A DNA stretch of 32,362 nt from Candidatus Scalinduaceae bacterium (GTDB lineage: Bacteria > Planctomycetota > Brocadiia > Brocadiales > Scalinduaceae), in the NCBI GenBank assembly GCA_046759445.1, contig JBHICG010000037.1:1-32362 (forward strand), given 5' to 3'. Positions 20,153-32,362 of the stretch are shown here, one piece after another (the stretch's first letter is position 1; each line of letters starts with the position of its first letter). Made by a program: the position numbers and the translations under genes. The notes beneath the pieces were generated by a model that saw nothing but the letters and a program-made list of their open reading frames with translations, had not been told where the DNA came from and did not search any database.

Positions 20153-20452
20153 ATTCTAACTCCTCATAAGTAATTGTACTAAAATAGCAGGTTTACACTA
20201 CATATTCCCATACAACTGAACCAAAAGAAACATTATAAAATTAAAAGAGAATTAAAATGGTCTCTGTTGATACCCAAAAAGGTGCAGTAATAAATGGATT
20301 TTTTTTGCCCCGTTAGATAAATCCATCTTTCTCTGATTTCAGTTATAGATAATACCTGAATATGTACATAATACTGTCTATAACATAATATCTTACGAGG
20401 TTTATATCTGAAGATATGTACTAGTGTTTAGGAGAATTGGTTGTGGCTAAAG

Positions 20453-20656
20453 TTATTTGTAAACATCTATAGCAAAATCTGGACACATTAAACCGCAAAA
20501 TTTACATGCAGTACATTTGTTACCATTTACATATTGTGCAACATGATAACCTAAATGATTTACATCTTCTGACATCTTTATAAGCTCATAAGGACATGCC
20601 TTAACGCAAAGCTCACACCCTTTACATCTATATTCATTAATTACAATTTTCCCCAT
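20453..20656 (-). CDS. 2x[4Fe-4S] ferredoxin resembling a 2-oxoacid oxidoreductase delta subunit
   Basis: CKGCELCVKACP and CTACKFCGLMCPDFAI. Confidence 0.9.
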   Translation of the reverse strand: MGKIVINEYRCKGCELCVKACPYELIKMSEDVNHLGYHVAQYVNGNKCTACKFCGLMCPDFAIDVYK

Positions 20657-20962
20657 TGTTATTTTTTTATTTAAAAATATTTAATTATAAGTATCATTGA
20701 TTTTAAATAATCCTTTCTTCTTAATCAATAATAAAAAACATAATAATTTTTGAGGCAGTTGTTATTTAAATGGTTCAAAAGTTAAGTCGCTTTTAATTAA
20801 GGATTCTAGATGAAAAATATATCCATTAAAAGTTTTTAATTCATGTATTGCACTTGTTTATTGAATTGAGAACAACTATCGTATATCATTAAAAGTTAAA
20901 CTTTGAGTCCAGTATTCCGTTTTTTATATTATAATTTGACAATAACTCGAATTGTATTCACT

Positions 20963-20999
20963 TATTGCTGGTTCAGTCTACAAGACTGAACCAGCAATA
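20963..20999. repeat. Perfect 17-bp inverted repeat with 3-nt loop downstream of the integrase; possible terminator
   Basis: TATTGCTGGTTCAGTCT-ACA-AGACTGAACCAGCAATA; no long U-tract. Confidence 0.7.
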
Positions 21000-21105
21000 G
21001 ATTTATGATTCAATAAATAAGGGAATTCAAGATGATAGACATACACGCACATATAAGGATAAACGCTTCTCTATCATAATGATAATTAATCACTTACAAC
21101 AATAT

Positions 21106-22146
21106 TCAAATTTCATTTTCTTTAACTGTAGTCAAATTGTAGTCAAACTCTAACACCTCTACTCCATCTCTTAAGCTTTCTGGACAATGATGGGAGTAAC
21201 GCTGAGTCATCTTGATATCTTTGTGTCCTAACAATTTTGATATTTTATAGATATCAATTCCTCCTTGAGCCAAGCGAGTCGCAAAACAATGTCTCAGGTC
21301 ATGGAATCTGAAGTTAGTGATTTTTGCCTTCTCTAATGACTTGCGAAAAGAATCTCCTAAACTATTGGGATTAACTTTTCTACCATCTCTGTTTAGAAAC
21401 ACATAATCATTCTTTATATTCCCTACCTTTGACCTTTGTTCGAGCACATTTAAAGCGTACTTATTAAGTGGAACGGTTCTATGTTCACCATTTTTAGTAT
21501 CGGTGATAAGAATAGTTTTTCTGATAATATTGACTTTTGACCATTCTAGCGAAATTAATTCTCCCTGCCTTAAACCTGTGTTTAGGCTAAAGATTATTAT
21601 TTCACTAAGCCACTCAGGACTATTTTCAATGAGCCGTCTTTCTTCATCTCCATTAAGCCATCTATCTCTCTTATTTTTCTCCTTTTCCTTTGACACTTTT
21701 GAGACAGGATTGTATTTGAGCCATTCCCATTCCTTAATAGCAACATTAAAAGCTGCTGAAAGCATTGACAACTCACGGTTTATTGTGGCTGGTTTCACAC
21801 CATCATTTCTTCTCAACATCTTATAGCGTGAAACCATTTTTGGAGATATAGACGATAAATTCGATTTCCCAAAGAAAGGAATAAGATGTTTTAAAGATGT
21901 TGTATAGCTCTTTCTCATATTCTCAGATACTGTTGGAGAATGCTCCTTCATAAATTTCTCCATCATATCTTTAAGAGTCTTATTATTACCGATAGGTTTC
22001 TCAAAATAACTCCCTTCAACAATCTCAGTCCTGATCTTCGCCTCTATAGCTTGTGCAAGTTTCTTATCAGTAGTTCCCAAACTCCTTTCAGCCTTTTTTC
22101 CTTTATATCTAATACACGTCCACCAGACACGGCCTCGTTTATACAT
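21106..22146 (-). CDS. int: Phage-type tyrosine integrase
   Basis: N-terminal arm-binding-like YKRGRVWW...SLGT; catalytic TGLRQGE, TKNG, FHDLRH, LLGH, TQRY; GGAGG SD. Confidence 0.95.
   Translation of the reverse strand: MYKRGRVWWTCIRYKGKKAERSLGTTDKKLAQAIEAKIRTEIVEGSYFEKPIGNNKTLKDMMEKFMKEHSPTVSENMRKSYTTSLKHLIPFFGKSNLSSISPKMVSRYKMLRRNDGVKPATINRELSMLSAAFNVAIKEWEWLKYNPVSKVSKEKEKNKRDRWLNGDEERRLIENSPEWLSEIIIFSLNTGLRQGELISLEWSKVNIIRKTILITDTKNGEHRTVPLNKYALNVLEQRSKVGNIKNDYVFLNRDGRKVNPNSLGDSFRKSLEKAKITNFRFHDLRHCFATRLAQGGIDIYKISKLLGHKDIKMTQRYSHHCPESLRDGVEVLEFDYNLTTVKENEI
21125..21146 (+). repeat. 22-bp direct repeat copy 1 (integrase arm-type site pair or att core), inside the int 3' end
   Basis: ACTGTAGTCAAATTGTAGTCAA, containing TGTAGTCAA twice; identical to 32240..32261. 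Confidence 0.85.
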
Positions 22147-22200
22147 ATTTACCTCCTTTCCCGAAGCCTGATAGTGCCTGTATAACCGCTATCAGATGTA

Positions 22201-22437
22201 TTATATAGTACCATTGTGGAAATCTACAACAATTTTGTTAGCGTTATTCTCATGTTGAAGGTATGGACGTTTTGAACTAGCCATTACATTATTTATATCA
22301 TGAAGGTCAAAGAGCACTCTGCGCCCAAATTTGATAGATGGTATCTTCCCTTGACTAGCCCACTCATATAGTGTTTTCTCAGGTAAAGATGTATACTCTG
22401 AAATTTCTTTAATGCCTACATATCGTTTATCCAACAT
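22201..22437 (-). CDS. Excisionase-like HTH DNA-binding protein
   Basis: YVGIKEISEYTSLPEKTLYEWASQGKIPSIKFGRRVLFD; next to int; ATG 22437 has a GGGAG SD. Confidence 0.88.
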   Translation of the reverse strand: MLDKRYVGIKEISEYTSLPEKTLYEWASQGKIPSIKFGRRVLFDLHDINNVMASSKRPYLQHENNANKIVVDFHNGTI

Positions 22438-22503
22438 TGTCTCCCTTAAGCATTCCGTTAATAACAATTTTAGATATTCATTTTATTACATTTTTATTTA
22501 ATC

Positions 22504-22662
22504 CTATTTACTATCCTGCTTATTTCTATATTTTCTTAATATGATATTAACACCTTCACGTACTAACTCTGAATATGGGATATTCAATCTATAACTTAGT
22601 TCTTTAATCCCTTTATACTGCTTACCAGTCAGGAAAACGTTGCAACTTTGCTTCAAATCCAT
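22504..22662 (-). CDS. Ribbon-helix-helix DNA-binding protein
   Basis: CNVFLTGKQYKGIKELSYRLNIPYSELVREGVNIILRKY; GGAG SD before ATG 22662. Confidence 0.8.
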   Translation of the reverse strand: MDLKQSCNVFLTGKQYKGIKELSYRLNIPYSELVREGVNIILRKYRNKQDSK

Positions 22663-22872
22663 TTCAATTCTCCATAAAAAAAGACCATGCAAAATTAATC
22701 ACATGGCCTTAATATATATATTAATTTATTTAAAATCTAATTGTTGTTACCATTAGTTACTTTTCACTAAAAGGTAACTGGTTTTTGTTTAAACAGGCTA
22801 ATACTACAAATTACAGGTATGAAACAAAGCTTCAACCTAAAAAATTATTTTATTACTTTAGTTTAAAAGTAA

Positions 22873-23622
22873 CTAACATTTTGTAAATATTTCATAATAT
22901 TTTTTCTTAATAGTTTTAGGTGTGTAACTGAATTTGTATTGGGATAAACATACATTCTCTACTTCCTTAAAATATTTTGGATATCCAAATGTTTTTGGCT
23001 GGCATTCTTTTTTTACAGAAATAAAAATCTTTTTCATTTCTATATCAGATATTTTTTTCTTTCTATCTACACTCTTTAGTTGTCTTTTCAAACGCTTCAA
23101 TTTTTTAAAATCTGATTCGGTAATACATAATGTGCGGATTGAAACGTCATAAGGGTGTTTTTCTATATACGGTGAGACAGGAAAAAGATAATAACCAATC
23201 TCGGGTTCATAGCATTCTTTAAATGCAAGTTTTATATGTTTGCTACTTAAAACGTTATCACTTTTAGCCAAGAATTTCTGTATATCCGTCTTATGATAAA
23301 AAAAGATTGGTTTATCATTGCCTCTTATAGTACCGACATTAACTTCTCCCTTAATACCACTCATGAGAATTTCTTCTTCCTGTAACTTCTTAGATGCTTC
23401 AGTTAACATAACTATTTTGCTAAACCGAGGAACTTTATAAGCTGAATCTTTAAGTGAATCAATAACAAGTGTTTTATCAAATGTAAATAAATTATTAATT
23501 TCCTGGGGTGTTGCACTACTAATAAAATCAAAGATTACTGGAAAGGATTTTTTTTCTTGCTTAACGGTAGTGGATTTTTTTGAAAACTTCTTTAAGGTTT
23601 TACTTTGCTTTTTCTTAATCAT
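22873..23622 (-). CDS. Hypothetical basic protein with possible C-terminal HTH
   Basis: 249-aa ORF with GAGGT SD; C-terminal helix pair ending YTPKTIKKKY. Confidence 0.6.
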   Translation of the reverse strand: MIKKKQSKTLKKFSKKSTTVKQEKKSFPVIFDFISSATPQEINNLFTFDKTLVIDSLKDSAYKVPRFSKIVMLTEASKKLQEEEILMSGIKGEVNVGTIRGNDKPIFFYHKTDIQKFLAKSDNVLSSKHIKLAFKECYEPEIGYYLFPVSPYIEKHPYDVSIRTLCITESDFKKLKRLKRQLKSVDRKKKISDIEMKKIFISVKKECQPKTFGYPKYFKEVENVCLSQYKFSYTPKTIKKKYYEIFTKC

Positions 23623-23658
23623 GCTGCCACCTCTCTTTCGTAGCTCTCTATAAGTGAG

Positions 23659-23715
23659 AATTGGGACAACTGGTAGAGATTGCCAGCTTTTGGATAGCTT
23701 GCCCTAGTCCCAATT
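23659..23715 (-). ncRNA. Putative structured cis-regulatory RNA, copy 1
   Basis: On -: outer stem AATTGGGAC/GTCCCAATT, linker TAGGGCAAGCTATCCAAA, inner stem AGCTGG/CCAGTT, loop CAATCTCTA. Same architecture as 31911..31967. Confidence 0.6.
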
Positions 23716-23782
23716 TGTGATTAGACAATGAAAAAGGAGAAGTGTAGAGATGTTAATCCCTATTTTAAACTTAAATTTGTAT

Positions 23783-24523
23783 TCATCTGTTTAAACCTTC
23801 TTCAACTACTGTAAATGTAATACTCTCACTTGTAGCATCATGAACTAAAATTTTATAGTCTTTAAACCGTATTACTTTTGAATCAGAAGGATATATTAAA
23901 TCCTGAAAGAATGCGGTTCTGGCTAAATTATCTGGAGAGTATTCTCTATATGTTATATGTAATGATTTTTCATCTTTGCCTGTGTAAATCAACTCATAAT
24001 TCTTATAACCTTGTTGAGAATCAACCTTTGTAATATCCTTCTTAATAAATTTAGCATCTGGAGGATTTACTTTAAATTTAAACCAGTTTTTTTGATAGAT
24101 TCCAATATTACGAAAAATCGAACTTCCGTCTACCTCACCATTTTCAGATATTAATAATAAGGAGCTAGCAGGATCGTCAGAAACAATTTTTATAAGGTAA
24201 AATATTTTCTTATTTACCATAGTTTCCCCTACAATTTCATATTGTTCCTGAGCATAAAAAGTGATTCTGCTTAGACTATATTTGATTGTAACATCAACAT
24301 TTGGAGAGACAGTTTTTGCGCTAAATTTTGATAAATAGTAATTCTTAACTTTGATCATTGGTTCACCAACATACATTGTTTTTCTTACGGTTAGCTCGTA
24401 ATTCTTATTAAAAACCTGATCAGTTCCAAGATAATTTGATCTATAGGGTGTGAAACTTGTACAACCCATTAACCAAAAAATGGAAATAAAACACAAAACA
24501 AAAACCTTATTGCTTCTTCTCAT
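23783..24523 (-). CDS. Lipoprotein of unknown function
   Basis: Lipobox LMGC after a hydrophobic stretch; C-terminal ELIYTG...YREYSPDNLARTAFFQDLIY. Confidence 0.75.
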   Translation of the reverse strand: MRRSNKVFVLCFISIFWLMGCTSFTPYRSNYLGTDQVFNKNYELTVRKTMYVGEPMIKVKNYYLSKFSAKTVSPNVDVTIKYSLSRITFYAQEQYEIVGETMVNKKIFYLIKIVSDDPASSLLLISENGEVDGSSIFRNIGIYQKNWFKFKVNPPDAKFIKKDITKVDSQQGYKNYELIYTGKDEKSLHITYREYSPDNLARTAFFQDLIYPSDSKVIRFKDYKILVHDATSESITFTVVEEGLNR

Positions 24524-24573
24524 GACCTTCCTTTATGATAAAAAGATAGGTAGTCAGTTTTTTGTTTTTAATA

Positions 24574-24720
24574 TCAGGCCAGACACACCATGCATGAATA
24601 CTTGAGCTGGACTGCCCGTCTAACTTGTGGAACTAAAATTCTATCGCAGCTTTCACATAAACCATCACTAGTTAACCTTAAAAACTAACCAGATTTTCTA
24701 CAATATTTACACGTAGCCAT
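24574..24720 (-). pseudogene. Small Zn-finger ORF interrupted by an in-frame TAG
   Basis: AAGGAG SD; MATCKYCRKSG*FLRLTSDGLCESCDRILV...; TAG at 24685-24687 lies between the two CxxC pairs. Confidence 0.55.
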
Positions 24721-24898
24721 AATAATATCTCCTTAATTCATTTAATATGTCCGTATAAATGTTCGTCATTGTGATTCCAACCCCCTTGATTTGATAAAGT
24801 TTACAAGACTCCCCCCTAGACACATGGAGCTTTCTGGCTTTCAATCAATCATAATCATGTTAGCCGTTGCATTCTGTGCTGACCGCTTCAACTTTGTG

Positions 24899-25555
24899 TT
24901 ATGGTTTAATAAGTAACTTTAAACAATTTCCTTCATCATCCCAGTTTAAAATAATTTTCTCAAGAGGCATTGACATGTTCTTTCCATTTTCGTCAAGAAA
25001 TGTTGTCCAAAAGTTATTGACTGAAAGCAAAGTTGACTTAAATCTGCTCCTTACATAAAGGCATCGATTCATGGTACTTGTGGAAACTAAAGCCTGTTGG
25101 TCAGGTGCAATTGTAATTCCTTTACCAATCCATTTTGCTAATTCTCTGACTTTACCTAGTCTAAGCTCAATTAATTTTTGAAAAACTTCTTCCGATGCTT
25201 TTATCGTTTGTGACCCTCGTCTGACAAAAGCTTTACCAGCAAAATGAGGAGTATCTCCATCATATTCAATCTCTACACATACACAAGGCTTTCCATCTTT
25301 TTCATAAACTTTAGACTTACAGGTATTAGTAATAGGTGGGTAAATTTTATCGCAAACCTCTTGTACTGTTATCTGTGTTGTTTCAGGATTAACGACTCCT
25401 TCGGTAGTACCATCATCCCTTTCACCTATATAAAATTTTGCTGTATGACCCTGTTTCACAGAATTAGCAAATGCAACAATAGTCCTTGTCATATCTTTCT
25501 TACTTGGATTAACTTTTCGCTCTACTAAATTATCTTCCCATGGTAAATCAGTCAT
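24899..25555 (-). CDS. Schlafen/AlbA_2-domain protein with short beta-rich C-terminal domain
   Basis: EDNLVERK, IVAFAN, YIGERDDG and FVRRGSQT motifs; AAGGAG SD. Confidence 0.85.
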   Translation of the reverse strand: MTDLPWEDNLVERKVNPSKKDMTRTIVAFANSVKQGHTAKFYIGERDDGTTEGVVNPETTQITVQEVCDKIYPPITNTCKSKVYEKDGKPCVCVEIEYDGDTPHFAGKAFVRRGSQTIKASEEVFQKLIELRLGKVRELAKWIGKGITIAPDQQALVSTSTMNRCLYVRSRFKSTLLSVNNFWTTFLDENGKNMSMPLEKIILNWDDEGNCLKLLIKP

Positions 25556-25567
25556 AATATCTCCTTT

Positions 25568-26092
25568 TTACTCATTTTCCTTCTCTTTTAAACCTCTATC
25601 ACCCAAAAAAAGCTCTTCAAATTTATCAATTAGTTTTTTGCTAGTATAAGTTGTTATAGTTTTAATGTTTTTCAGATATTTACTATACGCATTCCCCTCC
25701 TCGCTCATATCTATATACTGAGCAATATCATCTTTAGGAATTACATGAAATAAAAAAACCTTGCTTTTACCTGTAGCTCTGTATCGAAAGGTAACTGCAT
25801 ATATTCCTTCACTCACATCTACTGCTCTCCAACCTATAGGAAAAAAATCTCCGTTGGAATCTTTTGAGCGAACCTCTATAAATTTTTCTGTAGTTAAAAC
25901 CCAACCTTTTCCAGAAGCTAAAATTCCAGAATCTAAAACAACCTTTTTTGCCAACTCTATTGCCTTCTCTTTAGGAGAAACAACATTTTTCTCATTTTCT
26001 TTGGCAATAACACACGTATCAATAAAAGCAATTAAAAATCCAATCATTATTCCAATGTAAATATAATATTTATTTTTCATCTGAGACAGCAT
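25568..26092 (-). CDS. Hypothetical membrane-anchored or secreted protein
   Basis: N-terminal hydrophobic helix; start re-set to ATG 26092 (GGAGAGG SD). Confidence 0.65.
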   Translation of the reverse strand: MLSQMKNKYYIYIGIMIGFLIAFIDTCVIAKENEKNVVSPKEKAIELAKKVVLDSGILASGKGWVLTTEKFIEVRSKDSNGDFFPIGWRAVDVSEGIYAVTFRYRATGKSKVFLFHVIPKDDIAQYIDMSEEGNAYSKYLKNIKTITTYTSKKLIDKFEELFLGDRGLKEKENE

Positions 26093-26274
26093 ACTTACCT
26101 CTCCCTTCCCTTTATCAATTTCCTTACGATTTGTGCCTTGTCCAGCTCTGCGAATATACCCTGTATCTTGAATCATAGCTTTTTTTCATCGGGTCGCCCT
26201 GTACCGCATCCGTAACGACCTCCTCTGTATAGGCAGATATTAAACTAATCTTTTTGTTTACAAGATATATCAAT

Positions 26275-26904
26275 TCAATTATTCCTAATCAGATTTGCCA
26301 GTTTACCGTTCTCACTGGGCAATATGTCTGCATACAGGCTTGTCATTGTGATATTGCTATGCCCTAATTGTTTCTGAACAAACCTTAGATTCTTTGTCGT
26401 ATGATAAAGGTGCGTACCGTAAGTATGCCTAGCACTATGTATCGAGTATCTAGGATTTAACCCTGAGTCTTCTATTGCTTTTTTAAAGCTAATCTGCAAT
26501 GCAGTAGCGGTCGAATGTTTCCCGCCTCTACCAGCAAGGAAAGGAGCTTCAGGTTCTACGGATTCTTTTAAGGTCTTCTTTTTATAAGCGATATACTTTT
26601 TCAGTTCCTTAACCAATCTTTTGTCTAAATACACATCTCTATCCTTGTCCCTTTTACCATTTCTAACAAACAGATAAGGGTCATCTACTTTATTGAGATG
26701 CAAGTCTTTTATCTTTAACTTTGCAATCTCACTTACTCTAAGACCTGAATACAAGACAAGATTAACTAGCATGTTCCTTACAACCCATGTTATACGCCCT
26801 TTCATTAAATCAAGTTCTGCTTTTTCTTTACAAAACCTTATCAACTTATCTCTTTCTTTATCATCCATAAATTTGTCTCTTGTAATTTTATAATCAGATT
26901 TCAT
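26275..26904 (-). CDS. Small catalytic-domain-only tyrosine recombinase
   Basis: SGLRVSE, NGK, HSARHTY, QLGHS, TSLYA; 209 aa; AAGGAG SD. Confidence 0.92.
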   Translation of the reverse strand: MKSDYKITRDKFMDDKERDKLIRFCKEKAELDLMKGRITWVVRNMLVNLVLYSGLRVSEIAKLKIKDLHLNKVDDPYLFVRNGKRDKDRDVYLDKRLVKELKKYIAYKKKTLKESVEPEAPFLAGRGGKHSTATALQISFKKAIEDSGLNPRYSIHSARHTYGTHLYHTTKNLRFVQKQLGHSNITMTSLYADILPSENGKLANLIRNN

Positions 26905-26939
26905 TTTGTAATCTCCTTTCTAGATTATTCCTTTTCTTA

Positions 26940-27923
26940 CTACATAGCTCTGACTTCCTTCCAAAGTTGATTTATCTTTTTCTCAATAGATTTCTTTGTC
27001 TCAGGTTTAATATCAACTGTTTTGTCAAACAATTTATTCACAAATATAATATTAGGTACTGCTCTTTCAAAATCATCTTTATTAATATACAATTTGATCG
27101 CTTTAATAAAGTTTTCAAATGCCCTTTCAAACTCTTTACGCCTATAATAAATATTCCCTTTATTCTTATAAGGGAGAGGGTTATCTCGTTTTAAGTTAAT
27201 CGAGTTATTATAGTCTTCAATTGCTTCCTCATTACTATTGATCCTTCCATAAGCAGACCCTCTATAGTTATAAACAGAAGCAGCACTAGTATCATCTGGT
27301 GCTTCTTCTAATGCATTTGTAAAAGAGTCAATTGCATCTACATATTTCCCATTAATAAATTCTTCAGCTCCTTTATAATACCAGTCATCAAAGGAGTATT
27401 GCTTCTTAATCTTTGTTTGAGGAAGTAAATCTTTAAATTTAGTCTAGTTCAAACGAGTTTCTTCTGGAATAATGGGAACACCTTTCTCTTTAATAACTTC
27501 TTTATCTTTAATAACATCTTTTTCCTTTGCAGCCTCATTAATTACTTGTTGTTCTTCCTTTAAATTTTTAAGCACATCAGCTATCCCTTTTTTTCCTTCT
27601 TCTTCTAACTCATTTGTTAAATTCTCAATTACTTCTTTGGCTAATGGCTCAATTACACTCTTTGCAGTTTCTTTAACTTTTTCTTGAACAGTTTCTATAA
27701 TAGTTTTTTTAATATTTTCATAACCAATAAATGAAAGCAGAGCTATGGCTAAACCTATAGCTGTAATTATCATTCTCTTTTGTGAGCTATCTGACTCTTT
27801 TTTTGAAGTAACCAATTTTTCCAATGCCTTTAGCTGAATATTTGTTTGTTTTTGATTCCCATATACTTTCTCTTCCAAAACTTTTATATCAATATCCTTA
27901 TCTTTCTCTGGTTTTCGTGCCAT
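26940..27923 (-). pseudogene. TM + coiled-coil + TPR protein split by one in-frame TAG
   Basis: After the TAG at 27444-27446 the frame stays open for 167 codons with clear TPRs (DWYYKGAEEFINGKYVDAIDSFTNAL; VYNYRGSAY...EAIEDYNNSI; PYKNKGNIYY) to TAG 26940. Confidence 0.8.
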
Positions 27924-28212
27924 AGCTATACCCCTTTTTCTAAAGAAAAGACATGCAATATTTTTAAGGAATTATAAGTTATTTTTATTAATAAATAAAG
28001 AAAAAAAGGGATATTTTTATTAAAATTTATATTATATTAAAAATACCATGTTTAGTAAGTAAGGCGTATAAAGGAATCTGATTTTGTGGAACAGGCTGTC
28101 CAGAGAAACATAAACAATAAGATGCACTGAATGTTTCAGGTGAGGTGTTTGGCTTGTGGCAGCAGGAATTACAGGCCGTATCTGGAAATTGGAGGAAATT
28201 ATATAAAACGTA

Positions 28213-28641
28213 TTATACTATTGGAATTTCTACTTTATCGGCATCTTTTGGTATAGTCCTAAATGCATCACTATAACCAGAAAATCTGTTTATAGTAGGA
28301 GAAGGTATTTTAGCAAACGCTTTTAACATCAGCGTAGTAATTGAAACTAGCCTTTTGTCCTTAGAAGTGTAATCTGCTTGCACAGCCATTAAATCCATAT
28401 CGTACACATTAAACAATGCGTGTATATCTTTTAGTTGAAAACCAATTGGTTTTTTATCTTCAATTGAGAGATATAATGTTAAATATTCGTCAATTCTTTT
28501 TCGTATTGTGGCAACGTGCATGGTCTTAAAATGAATACAGTCCCCCTCTTGGTTATACCATATTTGAAGGTCGTGTTGTTTAGAACCAAAATCACTCCCT
28601 TTTGCATCTTGCATTATTTGATTTATAAATTCTTTTTCCAT
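28213..28641 (-). CDS. DUF2283-like putative antitoxin
   Basis: IWYNQEGDCIHF...RIDEYLTLYLSIEDKKPIGFQLKDI pattern; overlaps the upstream gene by 19 nt; GGAG SD before ATG 28641. Confidence 0.55.
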   Translation of the reverse strand: MEKEFINQIMQDAKGSDFGSKQHDLQIWYNQEGDCIHFKTMHVATIRKRIDEYLTLYLSIEDKKPIGFQLKDIHALFNVYDMDLMAVQADYTSKDKRLVSITTLMLKAFAKIPSPTINRFSGYSDAFRTIPKDADKVEIPIV

Positions 28642-29033
28642 ATTCGTTCTCCAAAACGGTCTTTCCAACCTATAGGACTTAGTGGATCTTCTATGTCAGC
28701 TTCCTCTGCTCCAAATTCAAAAATACTATTTCTTTCGTTTAAAAATACTAAATAAACAAGATCATCTGGAAATAATGCTGTATCACTTATATTTACTCCT
28801 ATATACCAATGCTTAGGTTTACCAACAACACATAACTTCTTACTGCTATTACTATGAGGCCTGTTAAGACCAGAAAAAATGCGATTGGGATTGTTTAATA
28901 CTTTGTATGCTGTTGAAAGATTAAGAAAATCATTTGGTCTATAAAGCATAAAATAATTATAATCTTTTGGTTCTATTCGTATTTCTTTTTCGCTATTGCT
29001 TACAGGCCATTTGATCGTAAAACGAATAAGCAT
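28623..29033 (-). CDS. Putative BECR-fold (RelE/Barnase-like) nuclease toxin
   Basis: AYKVLNNPNRIFSGLNR helix-P-strand pattern followed by beta strands; coupled to a DUF2283-like gene. Confidence 0.45.
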   Translation of the reverse strand: MLIRFTIKWPVSNSEKEIRIEPKDYNYFMLYRPNDFLNLSTAYKVLNNPNRIFSGLNRPHSNSSKKLCVVGKPKHWYIGVNISDTALFPDDLVYLVFLNERNSIFEFGAEEADIEDPLSPIGWKDRFGERIWKKNL

Positions 29034-29574
29034 TTACTAATACTTATTATAATCCTATTTGTTTTTTAAAGAAATGCTATATTTTGCTGGCGGATAAGGT
29101 CATCTATAATAGTACCCATTATAAAACACTTTTTTTTAAATAGTCAATCAAATTTTATCTATATATTTATCGTTAAGAAATATTTAGAATATAGCGTATA
29201 ATATGAAATTTATTGAAATTAGGACACTACCCAAATTTTATTCATTATTACTTTCCTAGCAACCAACTTATTTTACAAAATCTTATAAAACACATAACCA
29301 GTTGTTAACTTTTGCAATATAAACGTAGATATTTAACATTATATTGCTTATATAAGTAAATCTATTGTTATATTATGATTTGAGAACAACTATATATGGT
29401 AAGAAAGTTCATGTAACAGCATCAACGTAAACACAAACCTAATTTAATATAACTTCTCCACATCACAAGATGTGGTATAGTCTTTATGCTGGTAGAATGG
29501 TATGAAATTTGATAATAAATCTACATATTATTGAAGTCAAGAAAAAAGAGATAAGATAAAATAGGGATAATAAT

Positions 29575-30126
29575 ATGCCACCAAAAGCCGTGAAGACAAT
29601 CCGAGACTTGATTTATTGGCAATATTCTAAAATAATATCTGAATCAGCAGGTGCAGGCAAAAAGAAATACGCTTTTGTTATGGATAGATTTAAGAAACTA
29701 CGGACTGGTGAAATAAACTGGTCTGGATCAATTAGGGAATACATAAAAGAACGTGAAAGCCCTAATGAATGTATTTACTGTGGTTCTATGGATAACCTTT
29801 CCTATGACCACTTGATACCAAAAAGTAAAGGTGGATTTGATATACCTGATAACGTAATAATGGCATGTAAAAATTGTAATTCATCAAAAGGTGATAAAGG
29901 TGTTTATGAGTGGTTTAAATTAGATAGACGTTATGATGTACCAAGAATAGCAGAGGGCAAGTATTTGAAACTACTATATCAACTTCATGAAGAAAAAAAC
30001 ACTTTAGATTTAGGTCGTAAAGATATTGAAGAACTTTGCAAAATGTGTGATTTGGGAAGCCTTTGTTCAGAAACAGATTTAACCGTTTATTGTCTTGAAA
30101 GTATATTGCATAAAATTAGTAATTAA
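29575..30126 (+). CDS. HNH endonuclease (Zn-binding McrA-like core)
   Basis: CIYCG...DHLIPKSKGG...NVIMACKNCNSSKG plus a C-terminal CxxC-x4-C-x8-C cluster. Confidence 0.92.
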   Translation: MPPKAVKTIRDLIYWQYSKIISESAGAGKKKYAFVMDRFKKLRTGEINWSGSIREYIKERESPNECIYCGSMDNLSYDHLIPKSKGGFDIPDNVIMACKNCNSSKGDKGVYEWFKLDRRYDVPRIAEGKYLKLLYQLHEEKNTLDLGRKDIEELCKMCDLGSLCSETDLTVYCLESILHKISN

Positions 30127-30280
30127 TTTTGCCTTACTTTTTTAGCTTATGCGTGCGCTATTAAAATACCTATCATTTTTCAATTCCTATACCCCACTCC
30201 CAAAGAATCATATTCAGTCATAATAGTAATATCTCACCCATATATTGCAGACTAAAAATCGGGGTTTTTGTGTCATCATT

Positions 30281-30781
30281 TTAATAACTTCCTTTAAGTG
30301 CTCTTCTTGCTTCCTTTGGATCAAGCCCCATACTTTTAAAAAAACTATCAAATTTACCACTTTCCTTTTGGCATTCATAAGTTAAATCATAACAATGTCT
30401 GCATCCGAAATAGTCTCCGCCCAAATATAAAACACCTACTCTACGATTACACATCCTTCCATTTACCACAAGAGGACAAAGAAACCACCACCTATGCCCA
30501 CCATAATTGCAAGGAGTAAATACAAGTCTTACCTTATAATCTAACTCTGTCTTCTGACCTGAAAATCTATCTGTCTGTGTATATTGGAATCTGACGTGTT
30601 CATCACCTTTAATGGTTGATACTTGCAAACCGATACTTCCTCGTTTCTCTCCCCCTCTACTCCAAATCACACTGCCAATTTGAATGCCACCATTAAAGAA
30701 ATTGTGTTGATTAAGCCAGAACGTATTTATTGACTTGCATTCTTCAACTGTAATTCTATCTGAATATGACCATCTGCCCAT
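30281..30781 (-). CDS. Mobile-element Zn-finger hypothetical protein
   Basis: TPCNYGGHRWWFLCP...CNRRVGVLY...FGCRHCYDLTYECQ; GGAGGAG SD. Confidence 0.75.
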   Translation of the reverse strand: MGRWSYSDRITVEECKSINTFWLNQHNFFNGGIQIGSVIWSRGGEKRGSIGLQVSTIKGDEHVRFQYTQTDRFSGQKTELDYKVRLVFTPCNYGGHRWWFLCPLVVNGRMCNRRVGVLYLGGDYFGCRHCYDLTYECQKESGKFDSFFKSMGLDPKEARRALKGSY

Positions 30782-30909
30782 GTAATTTCTCCTCCTAATT
30801 TTTACCTAAATCAATAATAGACCTTTTTCTCAAATGCTAAATACCTTTTTAAATGTATTGAAAAACCTTAAGATTTCTTAATATGTTTACGGATTGTAAA
30901 AACCTCTTT

Positions 30910-31860
30910 TCATATAAACTTAACACCCTTTAACCTTTCAAAAAAAGCGTTGTTTGCCTCTGACATATCTTCAGGAAACCTTTGGCAATTGTTTATATAA
31001 GGGATTCTCTTCATATAAAAAATTTCATTCGCAACACCACCATAGACACTTGGAAAATCTCTCAATTGACCAATCAATAAATCCTTGTCGTCTTCATCAT
31101 ACGCTGATAGTCTTGATTTATTTTTCCACATCAAATGTTTTAAGAGTTTATCTCTATTAATTTCTTTAAATGAAATTAAGTCTGGTAAATTAATATCGTT
31201 GATTTTCTCAAAACAATCTAATTCTAAATCTAGTTTTCTGATATACGTTCTATTAAGTCTAAATTCCAGTCTTAAAACATTATTATTATCAATTTTCTTA
31301 GAATACAAAATTATTGACTTACTGTTTTTCCTCTTATGTCCGATATAAAAAGAACCAAATTCATTATCAACAAAACAACTGTTTCCCCTATGAAACTTTA
31401 AAAACAAATGCCTCCAGAAAAACTCCTGCAATCCGTACTCATATGGAGAAATATCTATAGTCAATTCAACATGAGATAATGTAGTTAAAAAACCAAACGA
31501 GTTACAAATAGCATCAAACCAATCAACAGTCTTTATATCAGGCTTATAAATGATTATTCCCATACATGGATACATAAGACGGCGAGATATACAATTGTAG
31601 AGAATTGAAACATTTATACCCGTTTCACTAGAACAATATCTTTTTATTCGGTCATAAATTCCACGTTTTGCCCATCTATCATATTTACATTTATAATCAT
31701 TATCTTTTAACACAGAAAACAATGTTTCTTCTGGTTTATCAACAATACTATTACAGCTAAAGTACATACGGTCTATATGAGGATAAATGACTGAATTAGA
31801 TAAAAAATATAAGATATCTATATAATTATTAGCCCCGTAGCAAATACTTGTGTTATACAT
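30910..31860 (-). CDS. Putative Rep_trans-like (rolling-circle) replication initiator / relaxase
   Basis: LSHVELTID, SFYIG...SKSIILYSK and LRLEFRL resemble the RxDxAxD / TxYxG...YxK / RxExR motifs; GGAGG SD. Confidence 0.6.
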   Translation of the reverse strand: MYNTSICYGANNYIDILYFLSNSVIYPHIDRMYFSCNSIVDKPEETLFSVLKDNDYKCKYDRWAKRGIYDRIKRYCSSETGINVSILYNCISRRLMYPCMGIIIYKPDIKTVDWFDAICNSFGFLTTLSHVELTIDISPYEYGLQEFFWRHLFLKFHRGNSCFVDNEFGSFYIGHKRKNSKSIILYSKKIDNNNVLRLEFRLNRTYIRKLDLELDCFEKINDINLPDLISFKEINRDKLLKHLMWKNKSRLSAYDEDDKDLLIGQLRDFPSVYGGVANEIFYMKRIPYINNCQRFPEDMSEANNAFFERLKGVKFI

Positions 31861-31910
31861 TATTTTTGCCCTCCATTATTTATGCCCTATTGTTTTTAAT
31901 TTAAATAAGG

Positions 31911-31967
31911 GGGAAAGGAGCGGGCGAGGACAAAGACACCCGCTTTTCGGTAGCTAACCTATTTCCC
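31911..31967 (-). ncRNA. Putative structured cis-regulatory RNA, copy 2 (rep leader)
   Basis: On -: outer stem GGGAAA/TTTCCC, linker TAGGTTAGCTACCGAAA, inner stem AGCGGGTG/CGCCCGCT, loop TCTTTGTCCT. Confidence 0.6.
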
Positions 31968-31978
31968 TTTGAACACAT

Positions 31979-32152
31979 TTATCTTGTTGCTTTTGCTTCA
32001 ATCTGTTCAGATTCTTCTTTTGGTCTTTTGCCCATTCGGTAAGGATGTAATGGGCAGTCAGTAATTTGGCATTTGCGAATTTTGGCAAGTTGGTTTGCAC
32101 AGCAATCTTTACATTTTGCCCGAATTGCTTTTATAGGCGTTAATCTCTTCAT
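31979..32152 (-). CDS. 57-aa Cys-rich phage-type protein (absent from the ORF track)
   Basis: GAGGAGG SD; MKRLTPIKAIRAKCKDCCANQLAKIRKCQITDCPLHPYRMGKRP... Confidence 0.8.
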   Translation of the reverse strand: MKRLTPIKAIRAKCKDCCANQLAKIRKCQITDCPLHPYRMGKRPKEESEQIEAKATR

Positions 32153-32239
32153 TCAAATACCTCCTCTATGAAAAAAACACATAGCTATCTAAGTTTTTTT
32201 AAGTTAAAATGAAAAAAGCATGATATTATGACATTTCGT

Positions 32240-32261
32240 ACTGTAGTCAAATTGTAGTCAA
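32240..32261 (+). repeat. 22-bp direct repeat copy 2
   Basis: ACTGTAGTCAAATTGTAGTCAA, identical to 21125..21146. Confidence 0.85.
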
Positions 32262-32362
32262 TTACAGCGTAATCAATCGGAATCCAAAGGAATCTACAGA
32301 AAAAAAGAAAATAGGCTTATCCGGTTGACTGCCGTTAGTTCAACATCTGGTGATTCTCGGTT

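Follow-up and report, generated by a model that had tools for sequence, protein, structure and literature searches.

Does the leader of a predicted replication gene in mobile DNA control the translation of that gene, and what kind of RNA would it be? The question arises at positions 31861..31967 (minus strand) of the window, by which we mean the whole stretch of 32,362 nucleotides from a Candidatus Scalinduaceae bacterium that was analyzed. A sequence-only reading had described this segment as the second copy of a structured leader whose loop can cover the Shine-Dalgarno of rep. It had gone on to suggest a pseudoknot-based control that links replication and regulatory genes of one element. The feature at 31861..31967 is real, and its fold and both of its loop pairings are present.

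We checked the fold against the minus-strand sequence. In the outer stem (P1), GGGAAA at 31967-31962 pairs with UUUCCC at 31916-31911, and in the 8-bp inner stem (P3), 31944-31937 pair with 31926-31919, with one U-G pair. The bases leading from the outer to the inner stem had been described as a linker. This part of the description had to be revised, as the "linker" is not plain but holds a 3-bp hairpin (P2, GGU/ACC with loop UAGCU); the rest of the fold is as described. Because of this hairpin, the RNA is a three-way junction. For copy 2 alone, the fold energy gives a z-score of -2.36 for the core and -0.09 for the whole 107 nt. In the viral copies of the RNA introduced below, P1 and P2 covary, with 270 compensatory (two-sided) cells compared with 91 after shuffling. 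Four P3 pairs counted in this comparison are fixed by the search pattern, and P3 is therefore uninformative on covariation.

The P3 loop can pair with two places downstream. Its bases UUUGUCCU pair at 8 of 8 positions (one G-U) with AGGGCAAA at 31872-31865, and this distal target (t2) has 3 nt in common with the GGAGG at 31874-31870. The second, partial target that had been proposed, AGGGCAUA at 31888-31881 (proximal target, t1), forms six contiguous base pairs with the loop. The duplex energies in Table 1 are for the loop only and are not pseudoknot energies. The proximal site has a mean unpaired probability of 0.43 in the copy 2 ensemble.

A site as good as one of these was found for the loop in 32 of 1405 background windows, and both sites in 7 of 1405. 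Seen against chance, the case for copy 2 by itself is modest, and the strong evidence is comparative. Eight close relatives retain all three helices and the 8-bp pairing, with 96% of cells paired. The loop:t2 helix is 98% paired among them. It has no two-sided change in these eight relatives, and its two one-sided changes are both G-U wobbles, which fits an RNA on the minus strand. Copy 2 itself has an atypical linker of 22 nt from P1 to t1 and a wobble at a position where 7/7 relatives have C-G. It may therefore be weakened.

Table 1. Positions of the two RNA copies, their targets and the surrounding genes and repeats in the window.
Feature	Positions	Strand	Basis or remark
Tyrosine integrase of the element	21106..22146	-	Profile matches
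22-bp direct repeat, left copy, at the integrase 3' end	21125..21146	.	Repeat comparison
Excisionase-like HTH gene, preceding the integrase	22201-22437		Profile matches
RHH gene, preceding the integrase	22504-22662		Profile matches
Copy 1 targets	23629..23650	-	23650-23645 proximal; 23634-23629 at ribosome-binding site
Copy 1 of the RNA, before a 249-aa ORF without assignable function	23659..23715	-	Rfam E-value scan, 32.2 bits
316-aa Rep_trans-fold nickase (replication initiator or relaxase; predicted)	30910..31860	-	Structure match
Distal target t2, 8 bp with one G-U; overlaps Shine-Dalgarno and spacer; putative OFF state	31865..31872	-	Duplex -9.6 kcal/mol
Shine-Dalgarno GGAGG of rep	31870..31874	-	9 nt 5' of ATG; rep ATG at 31860
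Proximal target t1, 6 bp with loop; decoy, putative ON state	31881..31888	-	Sequence; duplex -7.4 kcal/mol
Optional 7-bp hairpin, may hide part of the proximal target	31885..31910	-	MFE fold
Three-way-junction RNA, copy 2	31911..31967	-	P1 6 bp, UA, P2 3 bp, GAAA, P3 8 bp, CC
P3 loop UCUUUGUCCU, variable anti-target loop	31927..31936	-	Unpaired in nested ensemble
P2 hairpin inside the earlier "linker"	31949..31959	-	Fold, Rfam alignment; P2 covariation in viral copies
57-aa cysteine-rich ORF, stops 11 nt before P1	31979..32152	-	Conserved in L003-L006; unnamed phage-type clusters
22-bp direct repeat, right copy, upstream of the 57-aa ORF	32240..32261	.	Repeat comparison

What is this RNA? Rfam at gathering threshold gave no matches in the whole window. 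An E-value scan of 20300-32362 gave two full-length matches to int-alpA (RF02996), one at 23645-23714 (copy 1, 32.2 bits) and one at 31899-31969 (copy 2, 25.5 bits), neither of which reaches the gathering cut-off of 35.8 bits. Judged by its sequence, copy 2 is a divergent relative of this catalogued phage RNA motif; because it scores below the cut-off, we do not file it as a formal member. It follows the int-alpA junction order P1-UA-P2-GAAAA-P3-CU-P1 over model positions 1-71, with CC as J3/1, and contains the core bases UAG, CGAAAAGCGG and CCGC. The two share the three-way junction, the UA and GAAAA joiners, the GCGG/CCGC core of P3, a variable loop and a place in mobile DNA 5' of a gene, here the Rep_trans-fold ORF 50 nt downstream. 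Copy 2 differs in having a P3 of 8 bp instead of 5, a 22-nt linker to t1 and a score below the cut-off, and it precedes a predicted Rep_trans-fold protein, whereas int-alpA has an int/alpA neighbor. The Rfam consensus ends in a word complementary to its own loop, which is the proximal site, and the 71-nt model stops before the second target that overlaps the Shine-Dalgarno.

Rfam types int-alpA as "Gene; sRNA" and not as cis-regulatory. The motif is reportedly from Weinberg et al. 2017. Because the Rfam model reaches as far as the proximal site, a pseudoknot with this site may already be drawn in the motif's source, and possibly the second one too, which bears directly on novelty. The name int-alpA does not occur in the main text of that paper (PMC5737381). 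In those passages of the literature that name the motif we found no published mechanism, and the titles and opening parts of abstracts that were searched held no description of two-target pairing. The motif is known but unexplained, and copy 2 is a divergent variant of it. The sequence-only reading had overlooked that the RNA is a variant of int-alpA, which is located before many unrelated phage genes, and is no control device peculiar to this one element. A resemblance of the junction to hammerhead or tRNA-like folds was considered and discarded for want of Rfam support, and there is no tRNA in the window.

We sampled int-alpA-like RNAs with two patterns, one derived from the consensus, which found at least 120 viral loci, and one written from the copy 2 variant, which found 55. 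Twenty first-pattern loci were chosen by eye; all of them match int-alpA, 17 above the cut-off and 3 below. The viral set began with 175 loci among the matches listed. A P1 no shorter than 5 bp, together with 60 nt of downstream sequence, was present in 137 of them, and dereplication at 80% reduced these to 83 copies. Model R1 was built from 74 of these 83 copies, nine being omitted for odd length or doubtful parse. Copy 2 is the best match to R1 in the window (31.2 bits, E about 5e-6) and copy 1 matches weakly (15.9), a result that is not fully independent of copy 2 since one of the two seed patterns was taken from its variant. Of the 92 genomes of the anammox order, 39 contain a match to R1, and of the 28 genomes of the family, 9 contain int-alpA copies above the cut-off. 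The set from the anammox order and from Rep-linked loci, including both window copies, comprised 46 loci, of which 39 were parsed and 27 were left after dereplication. L221, L230, L238, L001, L008, L009 and L013 went unparsed, and the misparsed L228 and the probable false hit L241 were retained. At L228 (G026:C69), a small hairpin is apparently inserted between P1 and the proximal target, and both targets are kept.

Is pairing with two sites a property of the family? Each loop was scored both on its cognate region, the 45 bases downstream, and on the regions of all other copies, a control that retains the Shine-Dalgarno bias. In the 83 viral copies, the mean cognate scores for the best and second site were 15.6 and 12.6, compared with maxima of 12.1 and 9.65 in 20,000 permutations. 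In the 27 copies of the anammox-order set, 0 of 20,000 permutations reached the best-site or the second-site score. Because kin are not independent, these permutation counts overstate certainty. For the viral copies, the signal lies in the first 18 nt 3' of P1 (14.5 vs 8.3; 0 of 5000 permutations) and at -16..-3 of the start codon (12.9 vs 9.2; 0 of 5000). There was no signal for a target in the 45 nt 5' of the RNA (1834 of 5000 permutations reach the score), for loop pairing inside the ORF (442 of 5000) or for pairing of the P2 loop upstream or downstream (788 and 4391 of 5000).

The distal site is present in 63 of the 72 viral copies whose called start lies at least 24 nt 3' of P1. It uses 55 different paired words, and so many distinct words argue for many independent compensations. 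An ORF and two sites are present in 76 viral copies, and in 55 of these the distal site stops 3-16 nt 5' of the start; the starts were called mechanically and are in some cases wrong. In the 55 copies with both sites placed, it ends 7.8 +/- 2.0 nt before the start and overlaps a Shine-Dalgarno match by at least 2 nt in 47. At least four loop bases are common to both sites in 49 of the 55, so the sites are mutually exclusive. The proximal helix is the one that reaches further 3' in the loop, nearer the stem (33 copies vs 5), and the distance between proximal site and stem is narrow. Family-wide, the two duplexes are similar in loop-only energy (-8.4 vs -7.9 kcal/mol; 29 vs 24; p 0.13). Sequence alone thus leaves the resting state unfixed, and a trigger may be needed. 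By comparison, these data show a three-way junction whose P3 loop has the potential to pair with two downstream sites through the same loop bases, the second site lying on the ribosome-binding site. The conserved pairing of loop and ribosome-binding site with two alternative targets, first suggested for this locus, is therefore upheld by permutation tests in both the viral and the anammox set.

Other explanations of the downstream bases were tried and rejected. An intrinsic terminator 3' of P1 is not a general feature, as at least 5 T in 8 nt occur in 6 of 83 viral copies; U-rich tails follow P1 in 9 of 27 anammox copies, and no terminator follows P1 in copy 2. A tandem GGA site of the CsrA type does not account for the many paired words without GGA. 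A triplex that holds both sites together was dropped because the sites are direct repeats of mixed bases that obey Watson-Crick rules.

The gene behind copy 2 is an intact ORF of 316 aa without sequence match in Pfam, PHROG, NCBIfam or the PDB. Pfam Rep_trans (PF02486) matches neither this protein nor 34 scanned relatives among the 150 listed. Its relatives comprise 34 close matches and 221 representatives at E 0.001 or better, and none was found in viral contigs. The predicted structure (pLDDT 84) best matches RepDE and RepSTK1 (PDB 4cwc and 4cij) at E 8e-8 to 1e-6 and a TM of about 0.4. According to PMC4797284, the motifs of these two proteins include three metal carboxylates, a catalytic tyrosine, R140 and R189. 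The 316-aa protein likewise has carboxylates (D30, E132 and E199) and a tyrosine (Y186), invariant in 28 sequences, at positions mapped by eye from the motifs and not by superposition. It differs in that identity is about 10% and the equivalents of R140 and R189 are H130 and I184. The model thus has a TBP-like catalytic fold with three carboxylates and a predicted catalytic tyrosine. The name "rep", given from the sequence, can be kept as a prediction that is supported by the fold match and the invariant motif residues.

Among Rep relatives, the RNA model matches in 12 of 14 loci with upstream sequence; at L013 the RNA was recognized by eye and at L011 there is none. The Rep relative L244 is not preceded by the RNA either. 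Three different loop/target codes are found on this one Rep family. At L005, a second, truncated rep start lies on the opposite strand (120-299, minus), with a weak RNA-model match upstream.

Copy 1 was missed by the repeat search and by pattern searches with up to 3 mismatches, and was found by the E-value Rfam scan. Its loop (23682-23674) has two targets too, and loop and targets differ together between copies 1 and 2, in agreement with the sequence-only reading. The idea that the RNA links replication and regulatory genes is not supported. Cross scores between the copies are 13/11 and 11/11, compared with cognate scores of 18/14 and 14/13; cross-pairing thus does not surpass cognate pairing and does not extend to both sites, and cross-talk between the two copies is unsupported. 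The 249-aa ORF behind copy 1 has no assignable function, and two Rep relatives (L011 and L244) are without the RNA. ESM Atlas gave no named family for the 249-aa or the 57-aa ORF. A third RNA copy in the same genome (L001, G000:C89:3028-3098) scores 36 bits and passes the Rfam cut-off. After it come ORFs and an RHH gene that resembles the one at 22504-22662 of the window, and it probably marks a second related element.

An exact 22-bp repeat flanks the roughly 11-kb element in which the rep gene and its RNA lie. These repeats are probably the element ends or integrase arm sites. The repeat has an internal tandem unit, and a 20/22 copy occurs on another contig (G000:C39, near 9587). If the element were circularized, int would precede the small ORF, the RNA and rep on one strand. 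The cargo between 24899 and 30126 includes a Schlafen/AlbA_2 protein (24899-25555), a short second tyrosine recombinase (26275-26904), a two-gene pair without family matches (28213-29033) and an HNH protein (29575-30126). Promoter-like sites are at chance level, with 19 found and 18.8 expected. An out-of-frame mini-ORF of 7 codons (31876-31853, minus) overlaps the rep start; it is present in 8/8 close relatives and absent from L008-L010 and L013. In 3 of 8 close relatives, t1 stands at Shine-Dalgarno distance from the ATG of this mini-ORF. At the right edge of the window (32300-32362), the final 55-60 bases recur in many other contigs, often at a contig end, and this terminal genome-wide repeat probably broke the assembly there. 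At the left edge (2-265), the first ORF contains tandem repeats of 99 nt (33 aa).

Which genes follow the RNA elsewhere? Among the viral copies, 78 downstream ORFs were called, 6 were dropped for doubtful starts and 72 were scanned, of which 33 match a PHROG family. These 33 include 17 nucleases (mostly HNH), 5 replication initiators or primosomal proteins, 2 antirepressor-type regulators, and one each of an integrase, a ParB-like, an AAA+, a small terminase and a tail-chaperone protein; the first match is an unnamed PHROG family in 4. In E. coli 042, an RNA-like match lies between an integrase and a hypothetical gene that precedes an HTH regulator, and in two named phages an RNA-like match is intergenic, before small genes. 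Given this wide range, a trigger specific to the downstream protein seems unlikely. At L138, L139, L142, L146, L214 and other anammox loci, the RNA is followed by a 250-490-aa gene of unknown family, often with RHH or HTH genes next, which parallels the int-RNA-hypothetical-HTH order of E. coli 042. Some viral copies (L085, L154, L171, L186 and L200) lie before tail-assembly-chaperone-like genes, with a named match for L154 only, and the RNA may also tune structural-gene ratios.

The reading we favor, which has good support from covariation and which we hold to be probable, is that the RNA is a cis-acting leader that uses two alternating pseudoknots, of which only one can form at a time, to throttle translation of the gene that follows. 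The t1 site, transcribed first, would capture the loop and leave the Shine-Dalgarno free (ON). The loop would later shift by strand exchange to t2 and block binding of the 30S subunit (OFF). Through such a shift, each transcript would get a limited share or time window of initiation. Copy 2 is probably OFF at rest, because its t2 duplex is the stronger one and t1 can be hidden in a hairpin. This would probably keep the Rep_trans nickase low during integration of the element. The module would be portable and deployed before dosage-sensitive DNA-cutting genes.

Two near-equal alternative duplexes would also suit a signal-responsive switch, in which the junction binds a metabolite, ion or protein of phage or element activity and so selects one pseudoknot, as in a riboswitch. 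Loop and targets vary freely while junction bases recur, and they do so in copies found through the Rfam model or the Rep protein, independently of the search pattern. However, the downstream genes have no common pathway, the search patterns themselves impose core invariance on the viral set, and junction bases drift in the anammox copies, with no ligand candidate at hand; we find such a switch rather unlikely. Also unlikely, in our judgment, is a trans-acting sRNA like P4 CI or P1 C4, the latter being an RNA of the same type as the former. The released RNA would bind t2 on other transcripts and t1 would neutralize the mRNA's own loop, giving copy-number sensing or immunity with loop-coded specificity. 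The Rfam type "Gene; sRNA", the U-rich tails after P1 in 9/27 anammox copies, and the high diversity of loops, as for specificity groups and with three codes on one Rep family, speak for it. The P4 CI RNA offers a precedent (PMC4825925): it pairs with seqA and seqC, has targets on both its upstream and its downstream side and, once processed, acts in trans by causing termination. Like copy 2, P4 CI and Gifsy-1 IsrK are small structured RNAs of mobile elements with two complementary targets on their own transcript, and they guard replication or antirepressor genes (PMC4825925). Both targets of copy 2 are instead downstream within 50 nt, and in the viral copies a CI-like upstream target is missing in the 45 nt tested (1834/5000). 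The scarcity of T-rich tracts in viral copies (6/83), the lack of a terminator in copy 2, the narrow distance between proximal site and stem, and pairing of 5-8 bp only also argue against release and action in trans.

An activating or coupling device is, in our estimate, quite improbable. Here a ribosome ending the upstream ORF would remodel the leader and the t1 pseudoknot would hold the rep start open, much as in ColIb-P9 repZ. The 57-aa ORF does stop 11 nt before P1, an ORF of at least 60 codons ends within -15..+25 nt of P1 in 34 of 83 viral copies, and the mini-ORF lies over the rep start in 8/8 close relatives. Against this, such an upstream ORF is missing in 22 of 83 and ends outside this range in 27 of 83, distances counted without a null model; the small ORF is absent in L007 and L014, as is the mini-ORF in L008-L010 and L013. 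ColIb-P9 repZ and IncB repBA have one pseudoknot each, which activates, depends on a leader peptide and is blocked by antisense RNA (PMC4705826). What they have in common with copy 2 is a pseudoknot between a loop and downstream bases in a replication initiator's leader, which in repZ/repBA controls translation. The repZ partner, however, is upstream of the Shine-Dalgarno and activates, whereas copy 2 has a three-way junction and two alternative partners, the second of which covers the Shine-Dalgarno. Neither PK-repZ or PK-repBA nor C4 or IsrK was matched by Rfam, in the threshold scan of the window or in the E-value scan of 20300-32362. Finally, copy 2 could be a decayed or chance match without regulatory effect. 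It scores below the Rfam cut-off, has a whole-region z of -0.09 and a long linker, and some Rep relatives are without the RNA. Yet the helices and the 8-bp pairing are kept in the 8 relatives (96% of cells paired), rep is intact, and 7 of 1405 background windows match equally well, which makes decay or chance very improbable.

The favored leader reading also has a parallel in the T4-type homing endonucleases I-TevI, SegB and MobE. Their ribosome-binding sites are sequestered by simple hairpins and relieved by an internal late promoter (PMC2988022). In both cases, RNA structure would limit translation of nucleases on polycistronic transcripts, nucleases being the commonest downstream class here too. 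The T4 hairpins differ in having no conserved junction and no decoy site. By analogy, the leader of copy 2 would work like an RBS-occluding leader, with a pseudoknot like that of repZ and two targets like those of P4 CI; the features that define repZ and P4 CI are not found in it.

With cis-acting throttling through alternating pseudoknots as the favored reading, an orphan Rfam motif typed as an sRNA gains a specific mechanism, in which one loop would have two competing targets, one of them at the site where the ribosome binds. Joint changes of loop and targets are seen in phages that infect a wide range of hosts, and in anammox genomes as well. A broader view, which we consider possible but doubtful, is that int-alpA-type RNAs are widespread, portable two-state translational switches with a programmable loop. 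The conserved junction would sense a phage or stress signal, or a copy of the RNA itself in trans, and license nucleases as well as replication initiators. In the anammox-type bacterium studied here, replication of the integrated element would be gated in this way. Copy 2 is one more example of the motif, and what it adds is the link to an unannotated Rep_trans-fold family with swapped loop codes. If the mechanism is true, mobile elements would share a general, reprogrammable means of holding down their nucleases and replication initiators, and synthetic biology could draw on the natural loop/target codes as orthogonal parts.
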